From Geosiphon pyriformis uo1 (Eukaryota > Fungi > Glomeromycota), in the NCBI GenBank assembly GCA_016748015.1, contig JAAOMT010000633.1:9112-73111 (forward strand): a stretch of 64,000 bases of DNA, read 5' to 3'. Positions 11,933 through 42,100 of the stretch are shown piece by piece; position 1 is the first letter of the stretch; every line of letters starts with the position of its first letter. A program made the position numbers and the translations under genes. A model generated the notes under the pieces. The model did no database searches. It was not told the origin of the DNA and saw only the letters and a list, made by a program, of their open reading frames with translations.

Positions 11933-12583
11933 ATAAATAAATGCACTATTCTCAAAACAGAGATATTTTCAATTGACATAAATAATTATTTCCTAGATCA
12001 AAACATTCAAAACACTTTCTATACTCTCCATGAATATTGAATTAAAAACTATCCAAATGCTATTTTGACTATTAAAAAACTGACCACCATAATTAATAAC
12101 AATGAAACACATATTGTTATTAGACTTAAAAAAACCATTACTAGAAGAGAAAAAATTGGTAACAAAATAAATAAATATCTGTTAAAAAGTATAACAACAG
12201 CTATACTCCCACTTTTTAAAACAATTGAAAAAACAATTCAAGAAATCTTGCCCATAGACAAAAATTTGTCATATGAAAGACAATTAGAACTCTATAGTTG
12301 CTTTGGTGAAATTATAGAGAACATAAAACTAATAAAAAAACAACTTTAGAGATACAGAAAAAAATTTTGGGCATTATATGATTAGATGTTCCAAGAGTTT
12401 TAACTATTGCTAAAAGAGCCAAAACTCTAATACAAAAATTTGGTTTCTTGAATACAAAACTCATTTCATCTCAAATATTATATACCTTATCTATCAAAAA
12501 CTTTAATAAACTAGTTAGTTTTGAATTAAACAAACTCTTCAAATAAATTATCCCATAAATAGCTTGATTTTGTCAGAGCTTAA
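11933..12583 (+). pseudogene. E1 ORF3, unknown accessory protein
   Basis: Open segments (e.g. 12065-12349) lie between IN and the PPT. It ends ttt gtc aga gct taa, a decayed F-x-G-A-Q motif shared with the other families. Confidence 0.6.
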
Positions 12584-12639
12584 TTTCTTTGGAGAGGATA
12601 ATATTATGGTTGAAACTTATACTTTTTATTAGTTATCAC

Positions 12640-13406
12640 TATTACTCATAAAAAAAAACATACAAAAAAATAGTAGGAAAAATAGATAAACCAATAAAAA
12701 AATAGTAGTTAATATGTAAGCATATTGCTTAAGAAATTATAGCGTATTGCTTAAAAATGTGAGTGATCTTAAAGAACTCAAATTATGTATATATAGCAAG
12801 AGCATTAAAAGCAAAAAAGACAGAATCTTCAGCTAAAATTAATATCAAGATCAAGTAAAAACATATTAGTTAAAATTATTAATATCAATAAATAATTATT
12901 CACTATCTAAATTACTCTTCCCACTATTAACACTTTATGTTGATAGTCTTTGATACTTAATTACACTAGATCAATAGCTCTTGATCATAGCTATTAATGG
13001 AATACTAACTCTTTATTGTCTTGGCTTATTTCTTTATTTTCTTTATTTTTTTATTTTATTTTTTTTTCTTTTGTTTTATTTACTAATTGATTAAAGATTA
13101 ATATATAGAGTTATTAATGTCAAAGTAACTGGTAAAAGACTCAAAAATAAGGGTAAAACATTCAAGAATTGAGGATATCTTACCAAAAAAATTACTGGCC
13201 ATTATACTGAAAAATAAATTTGATGAAATTGCAATTCTGAGAAGTGATAGATAAAACAATACTTGAATTTCTGTCCATTATACAAAGAACTTAACTAAAA
13301 CCTTCAGACAACCAAAACCTTCAGATAATACCAATCATATCAAACTATTGAGCATTAAGTTACAGGTTTGTTATTTAATTTGAGATCCCAAATATTATTT
13401 GTAACA
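12640..13406 (+). repeat. E2 5' LTR (767 bp)
   Basis: tattactcata...tgtaaca; the TATA-onward part is homologous to the E4/E5/E7 LTRs. PBS at 13409-13425. Confidence 0.85.
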
Positions 13407-13468
13407 TTTAGTGCTCTCTGTGAGGTATAATTTTACAGAGAACTAGCACTAACAACAACTATCTAAAA

Positions 13469-15425: not shown

Positions 15426-16094
15426 TCAAGATTGAGCTCTATTGAAATTGAAGTTAATTTTTTCATTAAATTCTAAGTTACTATAGTGGTCCAATACTGT
15501 GTTATTAATTTGTTGTTGTAATTTTTGAAATTGTGAATTGGTAAGTCATCCAATACTGTTGGTTGTTATTATGTTCATAGTTGGGTCTAACAATAGTTTG
15601 TGACAGTTTTCAAATGCTTTGAAAATTCTGTAAACTGTTTTTGAATGGAATGTAGTGTTGGTTTTTTCAATAAAAGATTTCAATAGCTGGATTGTTGTTT
15701 TGTCAAACATTTTAGTTGAGTCTTTTAAGTATAATGTTTGTATGTTCAAGTGCTTTCCTAGTTGATAATAATAGTAGTTAATTGGAAATTTCGTTTTCAA
15801 GTTGCTAAATATGTCTGGTATTAATTCATTTATTTTTATTTCTTCTATTATTAATATATTGCCCAATGCTATCTCTAATTTTTCAATAACTTTGCTGATA
15901 AATTTGTTGTTATGTTTGGTAATATTATATAGTTCAAAATTATGTTCTTTTCTTGTTTTTGGATTTTCTATTGTTCTTTTTATGTATGTTATTTTGGAGC
16001 TATTAACTGTGATTTTCAGATCAAATTTTAATTGTTGTAAGCTTTCAACTAATTGTTGAGCTATATAGTTGATGTTTTCTGGAATAAGTATCAT
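15426..16094 (-). pseudogene. E3 ORF3 (~222 aa, one internal TGA)
   Basis: MILIPENINYIAQQL...YYYQLGKHL...TVYRIFKAF...NRAQS*. Largely covered by track ORF 15546-16136. Confidence 0.8.
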
Positions 16095-20890: not shown

Positions 20891-21520
20891 TTAATATTGA
20901 GCTCCATTGAAATCCAATTCTGTTAATTCCCTCTCTTGAAGTATTTTCTGAATTTTGTTTTTGAGAATTACTTGTGCTATTTGAGTCTGTAATTCTTCAA
21001 ATTGAGTGTTGGTGATCTTTCCTAATTGATTATTGGTAACTGTATCTATTGCTTTGTTGAGTAAGATTCTTGGTCAATTTTAAAATGCTGTGTGTATTCG
21101 GTATATGGCTTGGATCTGTGTGGATAAGTTGTTCTTTCTCACAAAATGTTCTAATTGTTGTAGTATTCTTGTGTCAAATAATTACTTTGTTTTATCTGTA
21201 TATAGATTCTAGATATTCACGTGTTGTCCCAAGTAAAAATAACAATAGTTTCTTGGAAATTGTTGTATCCACCAATTCCAAGTTTCTTTAGTCAACTCTT
21301 GGTATAGTGACTCTTTTGACGACTCTTTTATTGCTAATTTTACTTTTGCTATGATTTTGTCAATAGTATTTTCTGTTTTCTTCTGTGTTCTATGTGGCGA
21401 TGTCTTTCTAGTGTCTTGATATTAGATGGTTTGTTGATTAATTGTAATTTCCATCTCTTGGTGTTGAATTAATTAAAAGAGTTGTTGTGCTAGTGAGTAG
21501 ATGTTGTTTGTAATTTCCAT
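20891..21520 (-). pseudogene. E4 ORF3 (630 bp)
   Basis: MEITNNIYSLAQQL...WNWWIQQFPRNYCYFYLGQHV...DFNGAQY*. Same length as E5 ORF3. Confidence 0.8.
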
Positions 21521-21545
21521 TTTTTTGATATTTCTTGTCACATCT

Positions 21546-22580
21546 ACCATGTCTTTATATATTCTTTTGATGGATTAATTAATGTGTTGTTGTCAATAAT
21601 AATGATTGGTTCCAGATCTTGTAAAATCTCCTCTGGTTGGACTAGTATCTTCTGTACTCTTAATTGTAGAATATTATTGGTGGATTGTGATGTAATGTTG
21701 TGGTATGGTTTTAGTCAATCTCTATGTGCTGCTTTGGTTAAGATTTTGTTATCCAGTCTTAATTTGTAAGCTCTATTTCCTAGAATTTCTTCTATGTGAA
21801 ATGGTCCATCCTATTTGGAGTCAAATTTTCCACTTCATTGTTTTTCCGCTTTGGTATGATGTAAGAGTACTTTGTCTTCAATTTTGAATTCAACTGGTTT
21901 GTTTAATAGTTGATTATCATGTCTTTCCTTCTGTTTTTTTGTAACTTTTGTATGTTATCAGCTGCTTTTCTTTGTTTGTTTTCTAATGTTTCCATTAGGT
22001 CATATGTTTTTCATAATAATGTCTCTTGGAAATTCTCTTTTGTTATTGGTTCAGTTAGATATGTGTTAACCTCTATCTCAACTGGTAATGTTGCTGTTTT
22101 ACCATATATTAATTTAAATGGTGTTGCTTGTGTGGTGTCTTGTTTTATTGTCTGATAAGCAAATAATACTAATAGTATGAACAAATCCTATTTGTCCTGG
22201 TTTTCTTGGCTGAGTTTTGCTATTGCTTTACACAATGTTCTATTAAATCTTTCAACTAATCTATTGGTTTGTAGATAGTATGGTGATGATAGTGGTCTCT
22301 TAATTCCGAATCTTTGGCTTAGTTCTGCTAATGTTCTATTCACAAAATAGGTTTCTTGGTCTGATAATAGGTTTTTTGGACATTCATGTCAACAAATCAG
22401 ATCTTGATGGATGAATTTGGCAATGAATTCTGCATCCACTTTTTGGATTGCTTTTGCTTCTGGCCATTTAGTAAGATAGTCCATGACTACTACAATGTAT
22501 CTATTGCTTCTGCTGGTAATTGTCAATGGTCTGACTAAATTAATTCCAATGTGGTCAAATGGTTGTCCCACTTTGATTGG
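21546..22580 (-). pseudogene. int: E4 integrase, core and C-terminal part (N-terminal part at 42101-42479)
   Basis: KPLRP|IKVGQPFDHIGI is joined across the E5 insertion; MDYLTKWPEA; GPF module. Confidence 0.88.
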
Positions 22581-23470
22581 TGTTATTCATAGAATATAGG
22601 AAATATAGTATTATTAGTCAGTAGATATTAGTCATCAGAAGTAGACATAGTAAATGTGAAATTCCAGAATTCCTCTCAGAGGAATTGCAGGATTCCAGGA
22701 ATTTCAGGATTCTCTGATGAGGAATTGCAGAATTCCAGAATTCCAGAATTTTTTTTATCAGGAATCGCAAGATTCCAAGAATTCCAGGATTCCTGTCGCA
22801 AAGAATTAAGGAATTGAGGAATCTCACTTATGTATATATAGCAGTAGAATTAGAAGCTGAAAAGGCAGATCTCTCAGTTTAGATTTAATCTAAGCAACAT
22901 TCCAGTTCTCAATCATCAAATAAATAATTATTCTATATCTCAACTCACTCTTTACTATCAACACTTTATGTTGATAGTAATTGATACTTAACCACGCTAG
23001 AACAATAGCTTTTAATCACGGCTATTGACGAGATACTAACATACCAAATTGTCTTGGCTTATTTTATCTATTTTCTTTATTTTTATTTTCTTTATTTTAT
23101 TTTCTTTCTTTTTTTGATTTTGTTGTTGTATACTAATTGATTAAAAAATTAAGCACTGAGTTATTGATGTCAAGGATAGCCTGGTAAAAGACCCAGAAAT
23201 AAGGGTAGGATTTTATATATTATCAGATAGCTTACCAGAAGGGCATGACTGCCAGACTAAATCAGGCCACCATGCTGAGAAAAAAATTGAGAAAACTTTT
23301 GGAAAGATACATCTACTATCAACACTATTAAATCTCTGTCCATTATACAAAGGACTTCATCAAAATCTTCAGATACAATACTTGCAGAACTTTATCCACA
23401 GAAGTAGCTTTTGAGCACCAAGTTACAGGTTTGTTATTTAATTCAACAGCAGAAATAATCACCTGTAACA
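22581..23470 (+). repeat. E5 5' LTR (890 bp)
   Basis: tgttattcatagaa...acctgtaaca; direct repeat of 41227-42100. Confidence 0.95.
22655..22845 (+). promoter_or_regulatory. U3 array of degenerate GAATTCCA/GGATTCC units followed by a TATA-like box (tatatata, ~22833-22840)
   Basis: The same array plus TATATATAGCAGTAG occurs in all E4, E5 and E7 LTRs. Promoter function is inferred from position. Confidence 0.6.
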
Positions 23471-27262: not shown

Positions 27263-28010
27263 TGTTATGGTTTAAGAATTTAGCAAAAAGAATCATAAAA
27301 ATAATACAAACTATTCAATCAAAATATAGCACAGTAATAATCTTAGAAAGGTAATGATTAACATAGTAGCAAACACCATCTCGCGATAGTGACAAGCACC
27401 AGTTCACAATAGCAGCCAACACCAACTGGTGATAGCAGCAAGCACCAGGTTGAAATATCAAAAAGAAAGTATTTTTTTGTAGAACTACAAACATGTATAT
27501 ATACAGTAGTTTTAATATTGGGAAAGAATAAATCAAGTAATAAAAATTATAACTTATCAAGCAATAGATCCAATTTTATTCAACAAACTCCACTTTAAAT
27601 CATACTTTCAAATTAAATATCCCAAGAAACCTTTAAAATCAAAAAAAAATGAAAAAGAATATTTAAAACTGAACTATCACAACCCAAAGTATTAAGAAAC
27701 TTACTTGTATTATTTATTGAATGAAACTATCATTCATCAACTGAATCCCTTGGAAGAATAATCCTTGATCAAGATTATTCACGTTGTTACTAATTGATAA
27801 AAGCTTTATTGTGAGAATTAGAAAAGTGCTAAAGACCATTAACATTCTGTGTTTCTAGATTAGAGAAACACATCAGGCAATTGCAAGGATAGTCTCAGAG
27901 AAGACCCCAAACAGTGGGTAGATTTCAGTTTAGCCTCTGAGAAGGAGTACATAAACACACACAACAATCAAGAATTAAAGAATAACTTACATTGCAACAG
28001 TAAAAAGAAA
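27263..28010 (+). repeat. E6 5' LTR (3' end lost in the gap)
   Basis: Direct repeat of 35745-~36492, roughly 97% identical by eye. Confidence 0.93.
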
Positions 28011-28458
28011 NNNNNNNNNNNNNNNNNNNNNNNNNNNNNNNNNNNNNNNNNNNNNNNNNNNNNNNNNNNNNNNNNNNNNNNNNNNNNNNNNNNNNNNNNN
28101 NNNNNNNNNNNNNNNNNNNNNNNNNNNNNNNNNNNNNNNNNNNNNNNNNNNNNNNNNNNNNNNNNNNNNNNNNNNNNNNNNNNNNNNNNNNNNNNNNNNN
28201 NNNNNNNNNNNNNNNNNNNNNNNNNNNNNNNNNNNNNNNNNNNNNNNNNNNNNNNNNNNNNNNNNNNNNNNNNNNNNNNNNNNNNNNNNNNNNNNNNNNN
28301 NNNNNNNNNNNNNNNNNNNNNNNNNNNNNNNNNNNNNNNNNNNNNNNNNNNNNNNNNNNNNNNNNNNNNNNNNNNNNNNNNNNNNNNNNNNNNNNNNNNN
28401 NNNNNNNNNNNNNNNNNNNNNNNNNNNNNNNNNNNNNNNNNNNNNNNNNNNNNNNNNN
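28011..28458. other. Assembly gap (448 N)
   Basis: N run hiding the LTR end, PBS and Gag start of E6. Confidence 1.
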
Positions 28459-31400
28459 CACCAGCTCAAACGCCAAAGAAAACTGTCACTCAATCAATAA
28501 AGAAACAACGTATTTATTCACCAGAAGATAAATCATACCATTTTTCACCAGAAAATAAGATACAAATTCCATTAGGAGCTGCATCATCATCAACATCAAC
28601 TCCACAAACGCCAAAAACTCCTAGTTATATTGATAAAATTAAACAACATAACTGGGAAGACATACCAATTACAGGAGGATATTTATCACTATTCCAAAAC
28701 CCTCTTTTTCAGCCAAAATTTAGAACGGGGTTTGAAAACCGTGAAGAGGAGTCTGAATCAGAATCCGAAAAAGAGACCAGCGAAAAAACAATCACAAGAC
28801 CAGTCACTGGAACAAGCAGCCAGTTCAGAAACCAAGAAACTCATAATCAAGAGGAAGAACCGGATATAAGGGAAGCCATCTTTAGGAATGCTCAAGGAAA
28901 TATTATCCCACCTCCTCTTAGACCAATAAACCCACCAGCAGAAAACGGCAACGAAATGACCACACCATACATTGCAAGACTAACAGATTTCTCAGGAGAG
29001 GAAGAAGAAACGGACATGCACACATGGCTCAGAGAAGCACAAAAAGCCATCCAGGCAAATAACTGGAACAGCCAAAGAGCAATTCAAACATTACTTTTCT
29101 TCCTGAAAGGCACAGCCGACTCGTGGTATCAAAGCCTGGAAACAAAACCCACGAGCTTCGCCGAATTTAAAAATGCACTCCTGGAGTATTTTAGCGACCC
29201 AAATGCTGTAATCCAACTACAGAACGAATTCAATACTATCAAGCAAAATACCAGTGAAACTGTCACCCAATACCTTGCTCGATTCAATTAAATTCGCCAT
29301 CAGATTGAAGTGATTGAACAAAGATACTACACTGATCCTCAGGTTTTAAATCAGTTTATTAGAGGATTAAAAAGCAGCATTTTAGAAAAAGTATGCCCTG
29401 CCCACCCTAATTCCTTACCAGAAGCCGTTACGCTCACCAGAGCCCTTGAATCGGCTGAGAAAGAAGCTAACCATAGTCAAATGGTTAACATGGTAATGGA
29501 GGAAAATAAGACAGAAACATTAGAGAAAAGAGTAACGCAATTAGGGGAGGAACTCTCTAAGAAAATAGAAAGTTACCTCATTCTGGATCCGAGAAAAAAT
29601 ACATACCAACCACCCCAAAGACGCAGCCAGGAAGTCAGTGACAGTCGAAATAATCGCCCGTCGCGCCAGGAATTCAGAACAGAAACACGCGCCTGTTATT
29701 TTTGCAAACGCATAGGACATTTGATTAGTCAATATCAAATGCAAATGATGCAGGAAGCACGCGAAAATAATTACTACACGTCACTCCAAATGCCCAGAAA
29801 CCAGTACACGCCAATACCACACCAATATCCCACCACGTATCAAAATCAAGGAGCTTACCAGCAACAGCCCATAATAGCCAACCCGAATTGGCGTCCCGAG
29901 GACCGAAATCAGCCCATGTAAAACCAGAACGCATTGGTCCAGAGGAATCCAAACCACGCCGGAACCAATCAGCAAACCAATCCAAACTACCAAAATTATC
30001 AACAAACTTACCTTAATATACCGGAAAACCTAATTATCGGAAACAATGATGGTAGAAACATAAAAAGAACCAAAAATTTCTCCAAATTGAGCCAGACAAT
30101 ACCACCAGCAGTTGCCACCAAAGATAGCAGCCTCGCAGCTATTTTTCCTTTTGAATTAGAGGAAAACAAGGCTATGTTCAGTGGAGCAGCATTGGACGAA
30201 AAACGCCCAATCACTGCTATATATACGGAAGCCACTGTAAACAATACCTCAATCAAACTTATCTTAGACAGCGGATCCGCTGGAAGCATCGTAACACTTC
30301 AACTAGTAAACCAACTGGGTTTCAAAGTTGATCGTGCTGCGACGTCCCAAATCATAACAGCTGATGGAAGTACAAAGCTGCCTTATGGCGAAATCGACTC
30401 ATTCCCTTTCGAAATTAACGGCATAGTAATACCTACAAAAGTATTAGTAATGGACACTACACAATATCAAGCGTTAGTAGGAAATGACTGGCTAACAAAA
30501 GCCAACGCCACCCTAGACTGGACCACCCAAGAGCTTCTGATCAATTATAATGGCCACCAGGCCAAAATTCCAGCCACCTGTGGCCACTTCCAAAAACCCA
30601 GTGCCAACCAAAGACCTACCTTTGAATTTGAGGAAAATCCAGCACTACCAGCCATCGAAACCTATCAGCTCTCTTGGGCTAATGACCAAAAAACAGGACT
30701 ACCAGCAGTACCAACGTGGACCAGCGAAGAAAGATCCGAATGGAACCAGGTAAGTTCACGAAGAAACCACCAGCGATGCAGACCAAAGCTAGAATGCTCG
30801 GTTTGCAAGAAAAAACTCTCGTCTATGACTGCGTGCAGCGCACCGGACGAAGACCCAAGAAACCCCACTCACTACTATTGTAACCGTTGTAACAAAGAAA
30901 AATATGGTTACTCAGAAAGACACGGAAAATGGGACGAGGAACCGTGCCTCGCTTGTGGAGAACCATTACCAAGAGGGTGCGACTGGAACAACTTACCAGG
31001 CAGAGGAGGAACGTGTGACGCAACTTGCCAATACATGATCCTTATCTGTGACTGGGTAAGAGGAGGAATGCCGTTCGAAGCAGCGTTCAACAGAGCGTTA
31101 AAAAAACTACAGCACTACCCACACGACGAGAACGAGTTGTACAACACCACACAAGCCAAAGTAAGAGGAGGAACTGCCGAAGAAATACGATGTTGGAAAG
31201 AGTCAGCCGAAGTAGCCGATGAAGTCACCAGCTACAACATGTTTGACCCAGTGGACGAATTCCAAGACTACTACCAACAACTATGCCCCACTTGACAAGA
31301 GCAAGAACAATACCTCGCCCAAATCAACACTTACCTCTGCGAAAACTGTTTCATCCCATGCCAAAGTCAGTGCTGTGAAGAGTGTCAAGATGAAAGGGAC

Positions 31401-31556
31401 TTAGAAAGAAAAATGGAAATTGAGAATCAGCAGTCTCAAAATCAATCAATAAATCAACAAGATTCACCTGATGGTCCTGAGTCAGAAAAATTTGTAGCCT
31501 ATACCGACCTAGAACAGGTAACCGACATCCGATACTTCGACAACGGGCACTTAGGA

Positions 31557-31952
31557 ATAATACCCAAAAGAGCCCATCCAACCGACACCGGATTCAATCT
31601 ACGTTATTCGGAAGACCAATCCACAACGTTACCACCCAGGAGCATCACCAAAATTGACCTAAAATTAGTGGTTGAAATTCCGCCAGGAATAATGATTCAA
31701 ATGGCATCGCAATCAAGCCTCGCGAAAAAAGAAATAAGTGTTCAAGGAGGAGTAATTAACTCCGGATACACTGGAAATTTGATGGTTTTGCTACAGAACA
31801 ATTCAGAAAAGTCTTATACCATTGAATCTAAGGAAAAGATTGCACAAGCAATTTTCCTACCATTGGTAAAAATTGGGAAATTTGTGTCAGTGGAAAATTG
31901 TGAGGAATTGTCACAAACAACGAGAGAAACTTTTGGTTTCGGATCGACAGGA
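31557..31952 (+). CDS. dut: dUTPase domain within E6 ORF1
   Basis: All five trimeric dUTPase motifs in order: TGFNL (AGFDL in E4/E5), SQSSLA (RSSLA in E5/E7), GVINSGYTG, KIAQAI, R..FGFGSTG. Confidence 0.92.
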
Positions 31953-33358
31953 AAAGAAATTGAAGCGAATTTTGCTGAAACAATAGGGGAAAAAGGCGAA
32001 GTAATTAAAAATGAGCAGTCCATCACGCTCCTACCATATGGAAAATCAGAAATAAGAATAAAAAAGACAATTAAAGAAAAAGACCTAATATTTGAGCCCT
32101 ATCCAGAAACTTGCCAACAGTTTCTCATAGGACTTACTAACCTTTTTATTCCAGCTGATAAAGCTCAATGGATAAAAATTTCTATTGCAAACACCACAGA
32201 AGAACCCGTTTACATTCCGGAAGATATCATCATTGGATACCTCGGAACAGAGCTAGAAAATGTGTCAACACCACAAGAAATTCTAAATTTCCCAGAAATC
32301 GCCCTCTACTGTGAACTCACTTCAATAAATTGGCAACAACCAGTAGAATGCTATCAATTTACGCCAGAAGAATTGGCCAAATTAAACATTGGAACAATGG
32401 ATCCCGACCAACAGCGACAATTAAAAGCATTAATTTTAAAATACTCTGATATATTTTCAAGAAATGGCGAATTTGGAAAAACCAACTTGGTTCAACACCA
32501 AATCCCTACTGGAGACGCCAGACCTGAAAAACAATGCGCTTACTGTGTCCCACCAATGGAGCATAATTTTATCAAAGAAGAAGTCCAAAGCATGTTGGAA
32601 AAAGGAATAATACAACCATCAATGAGCCCATGGTCCTCACCAGTTGTTTTAGTAAGGAAAAAGAACGGAAAAATTAGATTTTGCGTCGACTATCGCAAAC
32701 TAAACAGCAAAACAACCAAAGACTCATACCCAATACTATTAATTGACGAAATCTTTGACGTTTTTGGAGGAGCAAAATGGTTTTCTACACTGGACTTGAC
32801 CAGTGGGTACTGGCAAGTGGAAATGGACCCAAAGGACAGGCATAAAACAGCATTCACAACACAAAATGGCAATTATGAGTTCAATGTAATGCCATTTGGA
32901 TTAACAAACGCTCCCGCGACATTCCAAAGACTAATGGACGTAATTTACTCCGGAATCCTGTGGCAATCCGTTGTTGTTTACTTGGATGATACAAATGTTT
33001 TCTCGTCAAAATTCACAGATCATCTCCAACATTTACAACAAGTTTTTGAGAGATTGAAACACGCTGGACTTAAACTAAATCTAGAAAAATGTTTCTTTGG
33101 AAAAAATGAGCTAGCATTTTTAGGACACGTAGTTGGAAAAGATGGAATAAAACCAGATCCATCAAAAATAGACAAAGTGAAAAATTTTCCAGTACCTCGA
33201 AACGTCTCAGAAGTTAGAAGCTTTTTAGGACTCGCATCTTACTACCGCTGCTTTGTAGAAAACTTTTCAAACATCGCCAAACCCCTTAATTACCTACTAT
33301 CTAAAAATGTGAAGTTTGAATGGACTGAAGCACAACAAAAAGCTTTTGAGTACCTTAG

Positions 33359-33529
33359 NNNNNNNNNNNNNNNNNNNNNNNNNNNNNNNNNNNNNNNNNN
33401 NNNNNNNNNNNNNNNNNNNNNNNNNNNNNNNNNNNNNNNNNNNNNNNNNNNNNNNNNNNNNNNNNNNNNNNNNNNNNNNNNNNNNNNNNNNNNNNNNNNN
33501 NNNNNNNNNNNNNNNNNNNNNNNNNNNNN
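33359..33529. other. Assembly gap (171 N) within RNase H
   Basis: N run; the equivalent E3 segment is ~390 bp, so the gap is undersized. Confidence 1.
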
Positions 33530-33601
33530 AACTGCTAATGCCGACTGTTTGTCAAGAATGAGACACACATAAAAATCACCAACCCACCTGCCACAACAAC
33601 A

Positions 33602-34981
33602 ATGAACAACCACCTTTACAAAAACCTCAGCCAATACTTGGAAACACTACAAATAGACGAAGAAATGCCAGTAAAAGAGCTAATTAAGCTCCAAAAATTA
33701 GCAAAACACTATTTCATCCAAAATCACATACTTTATTACTGGAATTGACAAAATCCAGATAATCCATTAAGAGTTATAACCACAGATGAAAAAGAAACTA
33801 TCTTATTTAACATGCACTCAGATATTCATTCAGGCCACTTTGGAAAAACAGCAACCATCCAACGTGCAACTAGCCATTACTATTGGCCAAAAATGAGTTC
33901 AGACATAATCCAATACATAAAAAATTGTGACCCATGCCAATGAAGAGGAGGAGCAAAAACAACGGAATTATTAAGACCAATAAAAGTTGGACAGCCATTT
34001 GACAGAATCGGAATTGATTTAGTTGGACTCTTACCAATAACAACAAGAAACAACTGTTATATTGCAGTAGCCATGGACTATCTCACCAAATGGCCAGAAG
34101 CTAGAGCTATTAAAACAGCTGATGCTATTTCTGTAGCTCAATTCGTACATGAAGACTTAATTTGCTGACATGGATGTCCACAAGAATTGCTATCAAATCA
34201 AGGCACACACTTCGTAAACAGCACCTTAAAAGAACTTAGCCAAAAATTTGGAATCAAGCAACCACTGTCATCACCATATCACCCTCAAACAAATGGATTA
34301 GTTGAAAGATTTAATCGCACATTATGCAAATCACTGGCGAAAATTAGTAACGAACATGAAAAAGAATGGAATTTGTTCATACCAGCAGTACTACTAGCAT
34401 ATAGAACAGTAAAACAAGATACTACACAATTCACACTGTTTGAACTAGTTTATGGAAGAAAAGCCACATTACCCGTTGAACTTACTATTCCAACTTATCC
34501 GAATGACACTATCACGGAAGCAACATTCTAGGAAACACTACTTAGAAGAACATACGAATTAATGGGAACTTTAGAAAACAAAAGAAGAAAAGCAGCACAA
34601 AATATTGAACAATCACAAGAACAACAAAAAGTGAGACATGATAACCAGTTACCAGATAATATAATTAGCTACAAAATTGGAGATAAAGTATTGTTACATC
34701 GTACAAAAATGGAAAAACAGTGGAGTGGAAAATTTGATCACAAGTAGGATGAACCATTTTATATTCACGAAATACTTGGAAATGGAGCATACAAGCTAAG
34801 ACTAGATGATAAAATATTAAGAAAAGCAGCACATGGTAACCGGCTGAAATTCTATTACAGTAAACCAGTAATAACAACAAAAACACCCAGAATTGGAACA
34901 CAATTACCTTTAATTCTACCAGAACAAATTCTACGAGATTTAGAACCAATAGTTTTAATTGAACATTATTCGAAAAGATAA
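33602..34981 (+). pseudogene. int: E6 integrase, separate ORF (459 codons, a few point stops)
   Basis: MNNHLYKNL..., HSDIHSGH...CDPC, IGIDLVG, LSNQG, GLVERFN and PFYIHEILGNGAYKL. No chromodomain. Confidence 0.92.
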
Positions 34982-35065
34982 TTAATCTTAGATCACAGCA
35001 AAAATGATTTAACAACCATAAAAACGCATGCAAAAGATTCCAAAATAACAGTCAAAATTAAAACA

Positions 35066-35731
35066 ATAATACTTATTCCAGAAAACATCAATATAACTCA
35101 ACAATTAGTTGAAAGCTTACAACAATTAAAATCCGATCTAGAAATTACAGTTAATAGCTCCAAAATAACATACATCAAAAGAACAATAGAAAATCCAAAA
35201 ACAAGAAAAGAACATAATTTCGAACCATATAATATTGCCAAATATAACACCAAATTTATTAGCAAAGTTATTGAAAAATTAGAGATAGCATTGGGCAATA
35301 CATTAATAATGGAAGAAATAGAAATAAGTGAATTAATACCAGACACATTTAGCAACTTAAAAACTAAATTCCCAATTAATTACTGTTATTATCAACTAGG
35401 AAAGCACTTGAACATACAAACATTATACTCAAAAGACTCAACTAGAGTGTTTGACAAAACAACTATCCAACTATTAGAACCTTTCATTGGAAAAACCAAC
35501 ACTACATTCCATTCAAAAACAGTTTACAGAATTTTCAAAGCATTTGAAAACTGTCACAAATTATTGTTGGACCCAACCATGAACATAATAACAACCAACA
35601 GTATTGGATGACTTACCAACTCGCAATTTCAAAAATTACAACAACAAATTAATAACACAGTATTGGACCACTATAGTAACTTAGAATTTAATGAAGAAAT
35701 TAACTTCAATTTCGATGGAGCTCAATCTTGA
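35066..35731 (+). pseudogene. E6 ORF3
   Basis: Homologous to E3 ORF3; the start is decayed to ATA. Ends FDGAQS* abutting the PPT. Confidence 0.8.
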
Positions 35732-35744
35732 AAGGAGGGGATAA

Positions 35745-36610
35745 TGTTACGGTTTAAGAATTTAGCAAAAAAAATCATAAAAATAATACAAACTATTCAA
35801 TCATAATATAGCACAGTAATAATCTTAGAAAGGTAATGATTAACATAGTAGCAAACACCATCTCGTGATAGTGGCAAGCACCAGTTCACAATAGCAGCCA
35901 ACACCAACTGGTGATAGTAGCAAGCACCAGGTTGAAATATCAAAAAGAAAGTATTTTCTCATAGAACTACAAACATGTATATATACAATAGTTTTAATAT
36001 TGGGAAAGAATAAATCAAGTAATAAAAATTATAATTTATCAAGCAATAGATCCAATTTTATCTAACAAACTCCACTTTAAATCATACTTTCAAATTAAAT
36101 ATCCCAAGAAACCTTTAAAATCAAAAAGAAATGAAAAAGAATATTTAAAACTGAACTATCACAACCCAAAGTATTAAGAAACTTACTTGTATTATTTATT
36201 GAATGAAACTATTATTCATCAACTGAATCCCTTGGAAGAATAATCCTTGATCAAGATTATTCACATTGTTACTAATTGATAAAAGCTTTATTGTGAGAAT
36301 TAGAAAAGCGCTAAAGACCATTAACATTCTGTGTTTCTAGATTAGAAAAACACATCAGGCAATTGCAAGGATAGCTTCAGAGAAGACCCCAGACAGTGGG
36401 TAGATTTCAGTTTAGCCTCTGAGAAGGAGTACATAAATACACACAACAATCAAGAATTAAAGAATAACTTACATCGCAACAGTAAAAAGAAAGCCTTCAG
36501 TGTAACAGTGACACTATCACACAAATAGAATTGAGGAACTCACGAAAGACTGATTGCAATTAAAGCGGGATATCAGCAATTAAATATAACAAGAAAACCA
36601 TCCTGTAACA
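35745..36610 (+). repeat. E6 3' LTR (866 bp)
   Basis: TGTTAC...GTAACA terminal inverted repeats. Confidence 0.95.
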
Positions 36611-39088
36611 ACGATCCCCAAAGAGGAAAAACCAATCAGCAGTTGCATATTGAAGTTGGAATCGCTGCTCAATCCCAATTCAAACCCCAACAACAATGAT
36701 GACAAGAATAATAGTTCCAGCTCCGTTCAAAATAGCAATGACAAGAACAACGATATCAACTCAGATTCAAACTTTGACTCAAACTATGAACAATATATCG
36801 CACTTCTTGACCTCACTAAGGAACAAGAACTGAAATGGTTCAGCAATAATAATGAAAGTATTATGCCAGAATGCATGCACAATACTAATGCAGGATTTGA
36901 TCTGAGATATCCAGAAACAGAAGCCATCAAATTGGAACCACATATGCACACCTGCATCAATTTGAAAATAGCACTAAAAATTCCAGCAACAATAATGGTT
37001 TAATTAGCATCTAGGAGTAGTTTAGCAAAAAGAGAGATTAATATAAAAGGAGAAATAATTGACATGGGATATGTGAGAAATATTATCACTATACTACAAA
37101 ATGACTCAAACAAGGCCTATATAATAGAGCCAAACAAAAAGATAGCACAGGCAATATTCTTACTTTTGGTTAAGATAGCTTAGTTAGTACTGGTGGGAAA
37201 CAGGGAAGAGTTAAAAATAACAACAAGAAAGATACAGGGATTTGGGTCAATGGGTAGAATAAATGTATCAGTTAATATGGCAGAGGAAGAAATTGTTGGC
37301 CAAAGAAAAATTATCTCAACCAGCCAAGCTATTTCCATTCCACCATATAGCCAGTATATGCTAACAATAGAAAGGAAGGAAAAAAAACAAGAACAGATTT
37401 TTGAAGCTGAAACAAGCCTTTGTGAATCAGAAAAGATTGGACTGATCAATTTCCACATACTAGCCAAAAGCTATAGCCACATAAAAATTCCCATCTACAA
37501 CAACACTGGCAATGTCATCAACATACCAGAAAGAACCACCATCGGATATTTAACCACAAAAATAGAAGACCAACCACCAAATCCCATTCCAGACTTTCCA
37601 CACCTTTGTGGATATGTCGACATTACATTACAAACAATCTATGGATGAGACAAATGTTATTTACTCCAACCAGAACATTTGGAACAAATGAACATGAAAA
37701 ACTTAGATTCACTTCAATGTATACAGCTCAAGATGTTGCTCAACAATTTTAAAGACATCTTTGCTAGTGAAAATGAGTTTGGCTGAACTGACATCATCCA
37801 GCATCAAATCAAGACTGGAGATGCAATGCCAATTAAACAAAGAGCATACAAAGTGCCACCAGCCAGCCATGAGATCATCTGTCAAGAGATAAACTGAATG
37901 CTTAACAATGGGCTAATTCAACCATCAATGAGCCCATGGTCATTACTAGTAGTACTTGTTTGTAAAAAGAATGGGAAAATCCGATTTTGTGTGGACTACA
38001 GGAAACTCAATAGTGTAATACGTGGAGACAGCTATCCAACTCCACAAATACAAGAATTATTCAATGCTTTCGGTGGGAACAAATGGTTTTCAACATTAGA
38101 TTTGGACAGTGGTTATTGGCAAGTAGCCATGAATTCAGCTAACAAAGAGAAGACAGCATTCACCACTAGAGAAAGGAATTTCAAATTTGAAGTGATGCCA
38201 TTTGGTTTAACCAACACACCAGCCACTTTCCAATGGCTAATAAAAATTGTCTATACTGGCTTATTGTGGAAATCAATAGTTGTATACTTGGACAACACCA
38301 ATGTATTCTCAAAAACATTTGATAATCATCTTTACCATCTTCAACAAGTGTTCGAAAGACTAAGAAGAGCAGGACTAAAGTTAAATACAACAAAGTGCTT
38401 CTTTGGCAAGACAGAGCTAAAATTTTTGGGACACATAATCAGTAAAGACGACATCAAAACGGATCCAGAGAAAATAGAGATAGTAAAGAACTTTCTAGTA
38501 CCAACCAATATGACTGAATTGAAATCATTCTTGGGATTCACAAGCTATTATCAATGCTTTATAAAGAACTTTTCAGAGATAGCTCAACCACTCAATAATC
38601 TGCAAATCAAGAATACCAAATATGAATAGACAGAAAGTCAACAAGAAGCTTTTGATATTCTCAAAAGAAAGCTCATTCAAGCTTTAGTACTGATCTACTC
38701 AGATTACAACAAACCATTCATCATTACTACTGATGCATCAAGCCAAGCATTAGAAGCAGTATTATCTCAGAGAGGACCAGATGGCAGAGAACATCCAGTA
38801 GCATATGTCAGCAGAGGTTTAACACCAGCCAAAAAAAACTAAGAAACACCAGAACAAGAACACTTAGCAATATACTGGGCAGTCATGAAATGGAAAAAAT
38901 ACTTGAGCCAGAAATTTGAAGTATACACAGATCACAAGGGATTAACATCACTCCAAAAACAAGAATTTGGAGATGAAAGACAGTCAAGATAGAAAATGGC
39001 ACTCGCACCATACAATTATACTATATATTACAAAAAAAGAAAAGACAATAGAAATGCTGATAGTTTGTCGTAAATGAGACAAATCTAA
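36611..39088 (+). pseudogene. gag-pol: E5 ORF1 part 2: N/D/S-rich linker, dUTPase, RT, RNase H
   Basis: NAGFDLRYP, QGFGSMG, FCVDYRKLN, YLDN(D), TDAS; ends MRQI*. Confidence 0.9.
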
Positions 39089-39147: not shown

Positions 39148-40530
39148 ATGAACATACAAAAATATCAACAATTTCAACATTATATAAACATTCAACAGTT
39201 CAAGGAGAATTTATCTCAAATGGAACAAAAGAGGATTAAACAACAATCAAAATATTTTATCACTCACCAAAATATACTTTATCGAAAAAATAAAAGGGAT
39301 CCAGATCAGCCAACCAAAGTGATTACAGAGCCAGAAAAAGAGACAATATTATTTAACATGCACTCAAATCCAACAGCTGGACATTTTCACAAAGAAGCAA
39401 CCATGAAAAGAACCAAAAAAAGATGCTATTGGCCATTAATGTATCCAGACATCATCCAATATGTTAAAAATTGTGATGCTTGTTAGCAAAGAAGAGGAAC
39501 AAGACCCAATGAACTATTAAGACCAATCAAAGTGGGACAACCATTTGACTGGATTGGAATTGATGTAGTCGGACCATTAACAATTACCAGCAGAGGAAAC
39601 AGATATATAGTAATAGCCATGAACTATCTCACTAAATGGCCAGAGGCAAAAGCAATTCAAAGAGCGGATGCAGAATCCATTGCCAAATTCGTTCATCAAG
39701 ATTTAATTTGTCAACATGGATGTCCAAAGGAATTATTATCAGACCAAGGAACTCATTTTGTGAACAGAACATTAACAAAATTGAGCCAAAGATTCGGAAT
39801 TAAGAGACCACTATCATTATCATACCATCCACAAACCAATAAATTAGTCAAAAGATTCAACAGAACATTGTGTAAAGCAATAGCTAAACTCAGCCAAGAA
39901 AACCAGAACAATTGGGATTTGTTGATACCATTAATACTATTTGCTTATCAGACAATGAAGCAAGATACTACACAAGCAATACCATTTGAATTAGTATATG
40001 GTAGAACAGCAATACTACCAGTGGAAATAGAAGTCAGCACATACCCAACCGAACCAATAACAGAAGAGAATTTCAAAAATACTTTGTTGAAAAAAACATA
40101 TGACTTAATGGAAACATTAGAAAACAAATGACAAAGAGCAGCTGATAACATACAAAAGTCACAAGAAAAACAAAAAGAAAGACATAATAACCAACTACCA
40201 GATAAACCAGTTGAATTTAGGATTGGAAACAAAGTACTACTATATTATACCAAAGTGGAAAAACAATGGAGTGGAAAATTTGACCCCAAATGAGATGGAT
40301 CATTTCACATAGAAGAAATTCTAGGAAATAGAGCTTACAAATTAAGATTGAATGACAAAATCTTGACCAAAACAGCACATGAAGATCGACTGAAACCATA
40401 TCACTATATAGCATCATCATCCACTAGTAATATTCCACAATTAGGAGTACAAAAAATACTAGTTCAACCAGATAAGATTTCATAAGACCTGGAACCAATC
40501 ATTATCATTGACAACAAAATGTCCAATTGA
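39148..40530 (+). pseudogene. int: E5 integrase, separate ORF (460 codons)
   Basis: MNIQKYQQF..., HSNPTAGH...CDAC, IGIDVVG, LSDQG, GSF(GPF) module. Confidence 0.92.
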
Positions 40531-40583
40531 TTGACAAAAGAATATATAAGAACATAGTCAATGCAACAGAAAAGAGCAGAAAA

Positions 40584-41213
40584 ATGGAGATTATGGACAA
40601 TATCCATTCACTAGCCCAACAAATTTTTTAATTAATCTAACACCAGGAGATGAAAATTACCATCAATCAACAAACTATTCGTTACAAAAATATGGGAAAA
40701 ATACCACAAAACAAAGCATAGAAAAGACTTGAAAACGTGGTTGACAAGATCATAACTAAGATAAAATTGGCCATGAAAGAACAACAAATAGTCGGATTAC
40801 ACCAAGAACTTACCAGAGAAACTTGGACTTGGTAGATACAACAATTTCCAAAAAACTATTGTTATTTTTACTTGGGACAACACGTGAATATCCAGAACTT
40901 ATATATGGATAAAACAAAGTGGTTATTCAACACAACAATACTACAACAACTAGAACATTTTGTGGAAAAAAACAACTTATCCACACAAGCTCGAGCTATA
41001 TACCAAATACACACAGCATTTCAAGATTGACCAATAATCCTACTCAACAAAGCAATAGATACGGTTATCAATAATCAATTGGAAAAAATCACCAATGCTC
41101 AATTTGAAGAATTACGGACTCAAATAACACAAGTAATTTTTGAAAATAAAATTCAGAAAATACTTTAAGAGAGAGAATTAAATGAATTGGATTTTAACGG
41201 AGCTCAATATTAA
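40584..41213 (+). pseudogene. E5 ORF3 (630 bp)
   Basis: MEIMDNIHSLAQQI...NYCYFYLGQHV...DFNGAQY*. Confidence 0.8.
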
Positions 41214-41226
41214 AAAGAGAAAATAA

Positions 41227-42100
41227 TGTTACTCATAGAATATAAGAAATATAGTATTATTAATCAGTAGATATTAGCCAATCAGAGGTAGACGTAGTAA
41301 ATGTGGAATTCCAGAATTCCTCTCAGAGGAATTGCAGGATTCCAGGAATTTCAAGATTCTCTGACGAAGAATTGTAGGATTCCAGAATTCCAGAATTCCT
41401 CTCATCAGAAATTGTAGAATTCCTGTTGCAAAGAATTAAGGAATTGAGGAATCTTACTTATGTATATATAGCAGTAGAATTAGAAGCTAAAAAGACAGAC
41501 CTCTTAGTTTAGATTTAATCTAAGCAACATTCCAGTTCCCAATTATCAAATAAATAATTATTCTATATCTCAACCCATTCTCTATTATCAACACTTCATG
41601 TTGATAGTAATTGATACTTAACCACACTGGAACAATAGCTCTTGATCATGGCTATTGATGAGATACTAATGTACCAAATTGCCTTGGCTTATTTTATTTA
41701 TTTTCTTTATTTTTATTTTCTTTATTTTATTTTCTTTCTTTTTTTGATTTTGTTGTTGTATACTTATTGATTAAAAGATTAAGCACTGAGTTATTGACAT
41801 CAAGGATAGCCTGGTAAAAGACCCAGAAATAAGGGTAGGATTTTATATATTATCGGATAACTTACCAAAAGGGCACGACTGCCAGACTAAATCTGGTCAC
41901 TATGCTGAGAAAGAAATTGGGAAAACTCTTGAAAAGATACATCTACTATCGACACTATTGAATCTCTGTTCATTATACAAAAGACTCCATCAAAACCTTC
42001 AGATACAACACTTGTAGAACCTCATCCACAGAAGTAGCTTTTGAGCACCAAGTCACAGGTTTGTTATTTAATTCAACAGCAGAAATAATCACCTGTAACA
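41227..42100 (+). repeat. E5 3' LTR (874 bp)
   Basis: Direct repeat of 22581-23470, 16 bp shorter within the U3 array. Confidence 0.95.

Follow-up and report, generated by a model that had tools for sequence, protein, structure and literature searches.

Does the third open reading frame (ORF3) found in the env position of LTR retrotransposons of the glomeromycote fungus Geosiphon pyriformis, read in the sense direction and situated between pol and the 3' LTR, represent a genuine gene, and what might its product do? We addressed this in the window (the whole 64-kb stretch of DNA analysed) and in homologous sequences from gene models and environmental data.

Genomic context of ORF3

The window consists of LTR retrotransposons nested in one another, with Pfam matches to aspartic protease, dUTPase, reverse transcriptase (RT), rve and an SH3-type integrase tail. 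The flagged ORF3 is carried by the beta element E5, which itself interrupts the beta element E4 and has the alpha element E6 nested inside it. The order of protease (PR), RT, RNase H (RH) and integrase (IN), the TG...CA LTRs, the polypurine tract (PPT) and the target duplication place the elements in Ty3/gypsy (Metaviridae). Their layout is Gag-PR-dUTPase-RT-RH, a separate integrase ORF, ORF3, PPT and LTR. The parts of E5 are as follows.

From 22581: 5' LTR of E5; a TTGG target duplication flanks E5
27263..36610, plus strand: alpha element E6, nested in E5
37898..38626, plus strand: reverse transcriptase of E5, with a dUTPase-homologous region upstream
39160..40560 (ends approximate), plus strand: integrase frame of E5, separate from RT-RNase H, with an rve core and an SH3-type C-terminus
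41214..41226, plus strand: polypurine tract of E5, directly 3' of the ORF3 stop
41227..42100, plus strand: 3' LTR of E5, TG...CA

E6 is the youngest element among those compared (23 differences in 748 aligned bases of its LTR pair), and its Gag, PR, dUTPase, RT and RNase H lie in one frame interrupted only by scattered stops. Differences between paired LTRs are almost all transitions, e.g. 22 of 23, 65 of 68 and 81 of 84, and the window is depleted of CpG (observed/expected 0.27). A cysteine-rich region between protease and dUTPase (30650-31400) gave a weak PHD-like zinc-finger match (E 0.036).

Decayed copies of a conserved frame

All eight peptides quoted in the first-pass annotation of this DNA were located in the window, and its coordinates held. 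It had proposed that the alpha and beta families carry alignable third ORFs, and four homologous copies were indeed found.

40584..41213, plus strand: ORF3 of beta element E5 (the flagged copy), 209 codons and a stop, six internal stops; a pseudogene copy
20891..21520, minus strand: ORF3 of beta element E4, 630 nt, six internal stops
15426..16094, minus strand: ORF3 of alpha element E3, one internal stop; in the integrase frame, 30-odd codons past the integrase stop
35069..35734, plus strand: ORF3 of alpha element E6, ATA in place of the ATG start, one internal stop at 35609

The E4 and E5 copies are both exactly 630 nt long, as had been noticed, and their alignment is free of gaps; alpha and beta ORF3 share 32-36% identity (tblastn E about 1e-23). 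A point absent from the earlier annotation is that these frames are not open in the window. The E5 copy is interrupted at codons 16, 19, 46, 84, 149 and 195, and E6 has an in-frame 3-nt deletion besides its lost start. The flagged copy is thus dead, and so are the other three. Of the ten stop positions in the two beta copies, eight are private to one copy and face CAA, CAG, TGG or CGT in the other, and codons 16 and 149 are stops in both. Given the transition-dominated LTR differences and the CpG depletion, post-insertion decay of cytosines is the likely cause of the stops. Undamaged counterparts exist: a stop-free beta gene model of 209 aa (P0001) aligns with the flagged frame over its full length (71%), and contigs from the sequencing runs X2 and X3 carry Arg at the position of the alpha ORF3 stop.

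ORF3 is under purifying selection

Selection was measured with a codon model with free transition bias on two pairs of copies, one beta and one, younger, alpha; raw Nei-Gojobori values were set aside, as transition bias lowers them in shifted frames too. For the beta pair (E4 against E5, 199 codons) the dN/dS of ORF3 was 0.32 (likelihood ratio test, p 1.1e-5). The values in this pair were 0.29 in IN and 0.21 in RT, and six non-coding LTR control frames gave 0.79-1.34. None of 2000 context-preserving permutations of beta ORF3 reached the observed value. The alpha pair gave a weaker signal: dN/dS was 0.37 with p 0.0045, yet 144 of 2000 permutations reached this value, and alpha RT stood at 0.75. 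A dN/dS near 1, which the first-pass annotation had named as the outcome that would speak against its proposal, was therefore not what the beta pair showed. ORF3 is under purifying selection and was functional during the divergence of these subfamilies.

E4 and E5 (39520-41213 against 20891-22585) differ unevenly at synonymous sites: the divergence is 0.36-0.38 for IN, 0.68 for ORF3 and 0.74 for RT, a hint that beta subfamilies have recombined.

The ORF3 family and its lineages

All 105 matches of a first homologue search were Geosiphon pyriformis gene models, as were all 79 of a second search with the ORF3-slot gene of element E1 (gamma) and 50 of the 51 of a third. A full-library profile search with ORF3 gave 97 matches, and among ten divergent ones looked up, eight came from Geosiphon and two were environmental proteins. 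Hence at least 180 Geosiphon "hypothetical proteins" (the 105 and 79 matches) match retrotransposon genes of the ORF3 slot and are likely not cellular genes. Five Geosiphon lineages were distinguished, namely alpha, beta, delta (P0279), epsilon (P0214) and zeta (P0271), together with two environmental ones (P0235 and P0246/P0277). Intact versions are at hand in P0001 (209 aa), P0279 (211 aa), P0271 (239 aa), P0235 (234 aa) and P0246 (230 aa). Many copies, some of them intact, and purifying selection are what a functional additional ORF (aORF) of an LTR family would show.

The earlier annotation had left room for a known Env or a previously described ORF family. Sequence searches with ORF3 in Pfam, PHROGs, NCBIfam and PDB returned no family over the cut-off, and no relative of P0235 was found in viral contigs. 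The DUF1016 N-terminal domain (DUF1016_N of YhcG, PF17761), which is helical and unassigned as described in the excerpt of PMC1189080, matches weakly and in register over the helical core of ORF3 (E 0.037; 14.6 bits against a cut-off of 32.8; one of 21 ORF3 members). A profile-profile comparison (hhalign) that took in 11 YhcG relatives gave E 0.12-0.14, with one of 30 shuffles as high. The match is a weak hint, with a score below the cut-off and a profile comparison that is not significant; ORF3 also differs from YhcG in having no nuclease domain downstream.

A more distant equivalent had been proposed for element E1.

11978..12632 (ends approximate), plus strand: gamma ORF of element E1, in the ORF3 slot, frameshifted in the window copy

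This is a real gene in the same slot, with intact models of 218 aa and a gap-free alignment in 20 of 79 matches, and it reads on through the PPT into the LTR. Its homology to alpha and beta ORF3, by contrast, is only borderline as judged from the sequence comparisons: the profile-profile probability is 0.1-0.4, one collinear pairwise match links gamma to the metagenome homologue P0246 (E 0.002, none of 500 shuffles as good), and three other gamma copies scored z 2.6-4.6 against that homologue. The later part of the LTR behind the gamma ORF (12603-13407) is similar to the beta LTR, and a beta-like gag comes after this LTR; the arrangement may be one of tandem elements with a common LTR or a recombinant.

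A free-standing integrase precedes ORF3

In E1, E4, E5, E6 and the metagenome contig L001, the integrase is an ORF of its own, in another frame after the RNase H stop. It starts a few dozen bases past that stop (33572-33602 in the window, 772-801 in L001). ORF3 is therefore literally a third cistron. L001 represents an independent case of this layout: it carries RT-RNase H, a stop, a separate integrase, a 316-nt spacer, the intact 230-aa ORF3 of P0246, the PPT and the start of an LTR. The suggestion that ORF3 is linked to a split integrase was borne out, as a separate integrase precedes the gene in the ORF3 slot in all four lineages with readable DNA context (alpha, beta, gamma and L001). No chromodomain was found at the integrase C-terminus, the IN of L001 and the IN tail of E3 matching SH3_Tf2-1 only. 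Between lineages, IN is 53-68% identical and ORF3 27-36%.

ORF3 is predicted to be a soluble helical protein

The env slot and the sense orientation would suit an Env or a movement protein. A hydropathy scan (no dedicated predictor) of eight ORF3 proteins showed neither a signal peptide nor a C-terminal transmembrane anchor in any of them: the best 19-residue window reached only 0.27-1.32, and no hydrophobic run lay at either end. The furin site R-x-K/R-R was absent from all eight, each has 0-3 cysteines, the proteins measure only 209-239 aa, and no Env family was matched. The claim of the first-pass annotation that ORF3 is soluble and not an Env thus stands, and the Env or movement reading, already largely refuted, is highly improbable.

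A structure was predicted with AlphaFold from a 59-row alignment headed by P0246 (mean pLDDT 77.8, about 90 over residues 81-200); an earlier run on 20 alpha and beta rows (pLDDT 41) was not used. The model starts with an N-terminal helix and hairpin of lower certainty, passes through a basic linker that is disordered, and ends in a confident helical core with a long last helix, the predicted helices spanning residues 82-95, 100-119, 126-141, 146-160 and 185-220. Together with the measured selection, this core agrees with the earlier view of a selected and mainly helical accessory protein.

Conserved residues are aromatic, Gly, Asn, Arg and Lys: K52, Y102, G108, N145, R155, F160 and L167 occur in all seven lineage representatives, and K143 and N178 in six. 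The turn that joins helices 126-141 and 146-160 contains K143 and N145, and from the secondary-structure string and the conserved residues we infer a possible helix-turn-helix. No column of Asp, Glu, His or Cys reaches six of seven among the representatives, which argues against an enzyme. Windows of net positive charge cover residues ~31-75 in all eight proteins and ~121-165 in most. A strict bipartite nuclear localization signal (NLS) pattern is present in the basic linker of P0246/P0277 and P0235, i.e. two of eight lineages (3-4% of shuffles), and is absent from the linkers of the alpha, beta, gamma, delta and zeta representatives.

With the whole model, Foldseek found no match at E 0.001 in PDB or BFVD, and the best hit of the VIA fold search had Z 5.4 (rmsd 3.1, 64 aligned); helical nucleic-acid-binding domains (PNPase, Orc6, Chd1 C-terminal, ParB) scored Z 4.1-5.3, which is background. 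For the predicted model, the fold searches thus neither give a fold nor show a new one. Homodimer prediction scored 0.01 and speaks neither for nor against a dimer.

DNA motifs flanking ORF3

Two DNA motifs accompany ORF3 of E5.

41200..41205, plus strand: GAGCTC motif, just 5' of the PPT
41306..41422, plus strand: GAATTC/GGAATT-type repeat cluster in the beta LTR of E5, 7 sites; candidate binding sites

GAGCT(C/T)AAT stands about 10 nt before the PPT in all six junctions read, including 41200-41205, 35716-35725, 12575-12585 and L001 3092-3097. It is kept at the DNA level in two different reading frames and is therefore likely a cis element, probably a signal for plus-strand priming. We do not regard the conserved C-terminal "F-x-G-A-Q" as a motif of the protein, since the same DNA reads E-L-N in L001 and gamma.

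AATTCC occurs 9 times in beta LTRs against 0.8 expected (none of 200 simulations had as many), and the LTRs of alpha, E1 and L001 hold 0-1 sites of the GAATTC/GGAATT type. Alpha and beta have ORF3 in common but not their LTRs, whereas the LTR behind the gamma ORF matches the beta LTR at 74-82% over 45-220 nt although gamma and beta ORF3s barely align. Across the three families, similar LTRs do not go with similar ORF3s, which speaks against simple ORF3-LTR co-evolution.

Contigs of the alpha element with intron-like skips

Contigs of X2 and X3, from two studies, skip many short stretches in E6 (28539-32331 and 35694-36610), and of 12 skips tested, 8 have ends consistent with GT-AG introns on the minus strand (3% by chance); the DNA run X1 is without these joints. 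The skips may reflect an antisense form of an alpha copy with several introns, which would extend from the RT/dUTPase region across gag and into the LTR, the runs being labelled "DNA?" or "RNA?" and the contigs strandless. In the sequence of the window copy, the joined exons contain no reading frame above 101 codons and are thus likely non-coding. No sense splice occurs among the joints shown, which leave aside 80 further ones. One contig, like the others carrying no strand information, covers alpha ORF3 (35232-35976), and beta ORF3 has next to no cover in X2 and X3, a figure that does not bear on its expression. We do not take the alpha gene models of 259 aa for the true product, since their last exon falls inside the 3' LTR (36337-36525) and the joint is absent among those shown.

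Two further contigs touch ORF3. A deep X2/X3 contig matches 38 nt around the alpha ORF3 start (35041-35078) with 5 differences and then diverges, as would the ORF3 start of another family or a chance match. At 35694, the final 50 nt of ORF3, the PPT and the LTR follow 187 unrelated letters in a long X3 contig, which is either an internally deleted copy or an assembly chimera.

What might ORF3 do?

From the earlier interpretation, the selected, soluble, helical, non-Env accessory protein stands, and none of the four functions it listed (anti-silencing factor, transactivator, integrase-packaging adaptor, targeting factor) is established. The anatomy of ORF3 leans towards a nuclear regulator that binds nucleic acid. 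ORF3 is a third gene maintained by selection in a clade of fungal Ty3/gypsy elements with a free-standing integrase gene. Our tentative preference, held at somewhat less than an even chance, is that its soluble protein enters the nucleus, binds the DNA of its own element and activates it or prevents its silencing. The basic linker would mediate nuclear import, the unit of helix, Gly-Lys-x-Asn turn and helix would contact DNA, the family-specific LTR repeats would be the target, and the outcome would be activation or anti-silencing of the own element. This self-acting, DNA-level regulator is favoured by the family-specific divergence (divergence faster than that of IN fits a family-specific factor), the basic, non-catalytic conserved residues, the private beta LTR repeats and the signs of methylation decay; methylation of transposable elements and small RNAs are documented in Rhizophagus in the excerpt of PMC8647823. 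Against it count the restriction of the strict NLS pattern to two environmental lineages, the mismatch between LTR and ORF3 similarity across alpha, beta and gamma, and the alpha LTRs, which are without a comparable repeat cluster. Moreover, LTRs commonly contain repeat clusters, to which host factors may bind.

A role of ORF3 as partner of the integrase, which is translated separately, would account more directly for its constant association with a split integrase. ORF3 would then package integrase into particles, escort the pre-integration complex to the nucleus or guide target choice as a substitute for a chromodomain. ORF3 abuts the end of IN (start and stop overlap in beta, and alpha lies in the same frame behind one stop), the IN of L001 is without a chromodomain match, and the basic linker is equally suited to nuclear import. 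However, the 316-nt spacer of L001 is AT-rich and shows that this coupling is not conserved, an alpha IN tail running into ORF3 was seen in 0 of 312 proteins (from length-limited or clustered searches), ORF3 diverges much faster than IN, and split IN and ORF3 may simply mark one clade. We consider a partner role rather unlikely. An extended version, in which a three-cistron design yields integrase separately from Gag-Pol while ORF3 takes care of its packaging and brings the integration complex to nuclei, so that spread from nucleus to nucleus in coenocytic cytoplasm would replace Env within the cell, is quite unlikely.

Caulimovirus P6/TAV and Rev are precedents for action on RNA, and ORF3 could help the three-cistron RNA of the element to be translated, exported or spliced, or suppress RNA silencing. 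One LTR promoter must serve three ORFs, basic helical proteins bind RNA too, and the spliced antisense form of the alpha element in two runs could feed small-RNA silencing. We nevertheless judge an RNA-level role unlikely: no RNA-binding family was matched in Pfam, PHROGs or NCBIfam, and in both environmental lineages the bipartite NLS pattern suggests a nuclear location. ORF3 might instead be cargo captured from the host, of no more than indirect benefit to the element or with an effect on the host, its core presumably resembling a large, high-copy protein family of Glomeromycota. That family did not appear in the homologue searches, which recovered no copy shown to be a cellular gene, and three distant homologues end in a peptide that results from reading through the PPT and LTR start, so they too lie inside elements. 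Although gene capture by LTR elements is known (excerpts of PMC7264820 and PMC5408684), such cargo is very unlikely here.

Comparison with known systems

To our knowledge, almost no extra ORF in the env slot has an assigned function, and fungal cases are barely described. ORF3 is tractable in this respect: it offers intact natural versions, measured selection and a confident model that names residues, and it travels with an unusual free-standing integrase. The self-acting regulator that we tentatively prefer has a precedent in foamy-virus Tas, an element-encoded accessory protein acting on short repeats of its own family. VANC of the Arabidopsis VANDAL elements, as presented in the excerpt of PMC6719617, similarly acts on short repeats in its own family and may serve as a working model only, VANDAL being a DNA transposon. 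An element-encoded activator or integrase escort, if true, could help to explain why LTR elements are strikingly expanded in Geosiphonaceae and Ambisporaceae (excerpt of PMC11952901).

Additional sense ORFs between pol and the 3' LTR of plant Ty3/gypsy elements were reviewed by Vicient and Casacuberta in 2020 (PMC7264820). ORF3 resembles these aORFs in position, presence in most copies of a family, pol-like conservation and a function that is not known; a nuclear accessory role has been proposed for antisense aORFs such as Grande gene23 (PMC7264820). It differs in that the plant sense aORFs are Env-like with transmembrane runs and ORF3 is soluble, that its host is a glomeromycote fungus, and that the integrase of its elements is a separate ORF. 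The non-Env genes in the ORF3 slot of dUTPase-bearing LTR elements of bdelloid rotifers are, in the excerpt of PMC5408684, recognisable enzymes (GDSL esterase, DEDDy exonuclease), whereas the fungal ORF3 has no conserved set of acidic, His or Cys residues. Among fungal Ty3/gypsy elements, the excerpt of Novikova et al. 2010 (PMC2864245) describes a dUTPase between PR and RT in one family and, in a figure legend, an "additional ORF of unknown function"; it deals mainly with chromodomain elements and gives no sequence family, selection test or split integrase. Our literature search, which excluded supplements and the Geosiphon genome paper, where a prior mention is possible, found no description of the ORF3 family or of a split integrase in Glomeromycota. 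Thus, extra ORFs in the env slot are of a known kind, and what is new here, within the literature searched, is this ORF3 family and that it occurs together with a free integrase in a glomeromycote.
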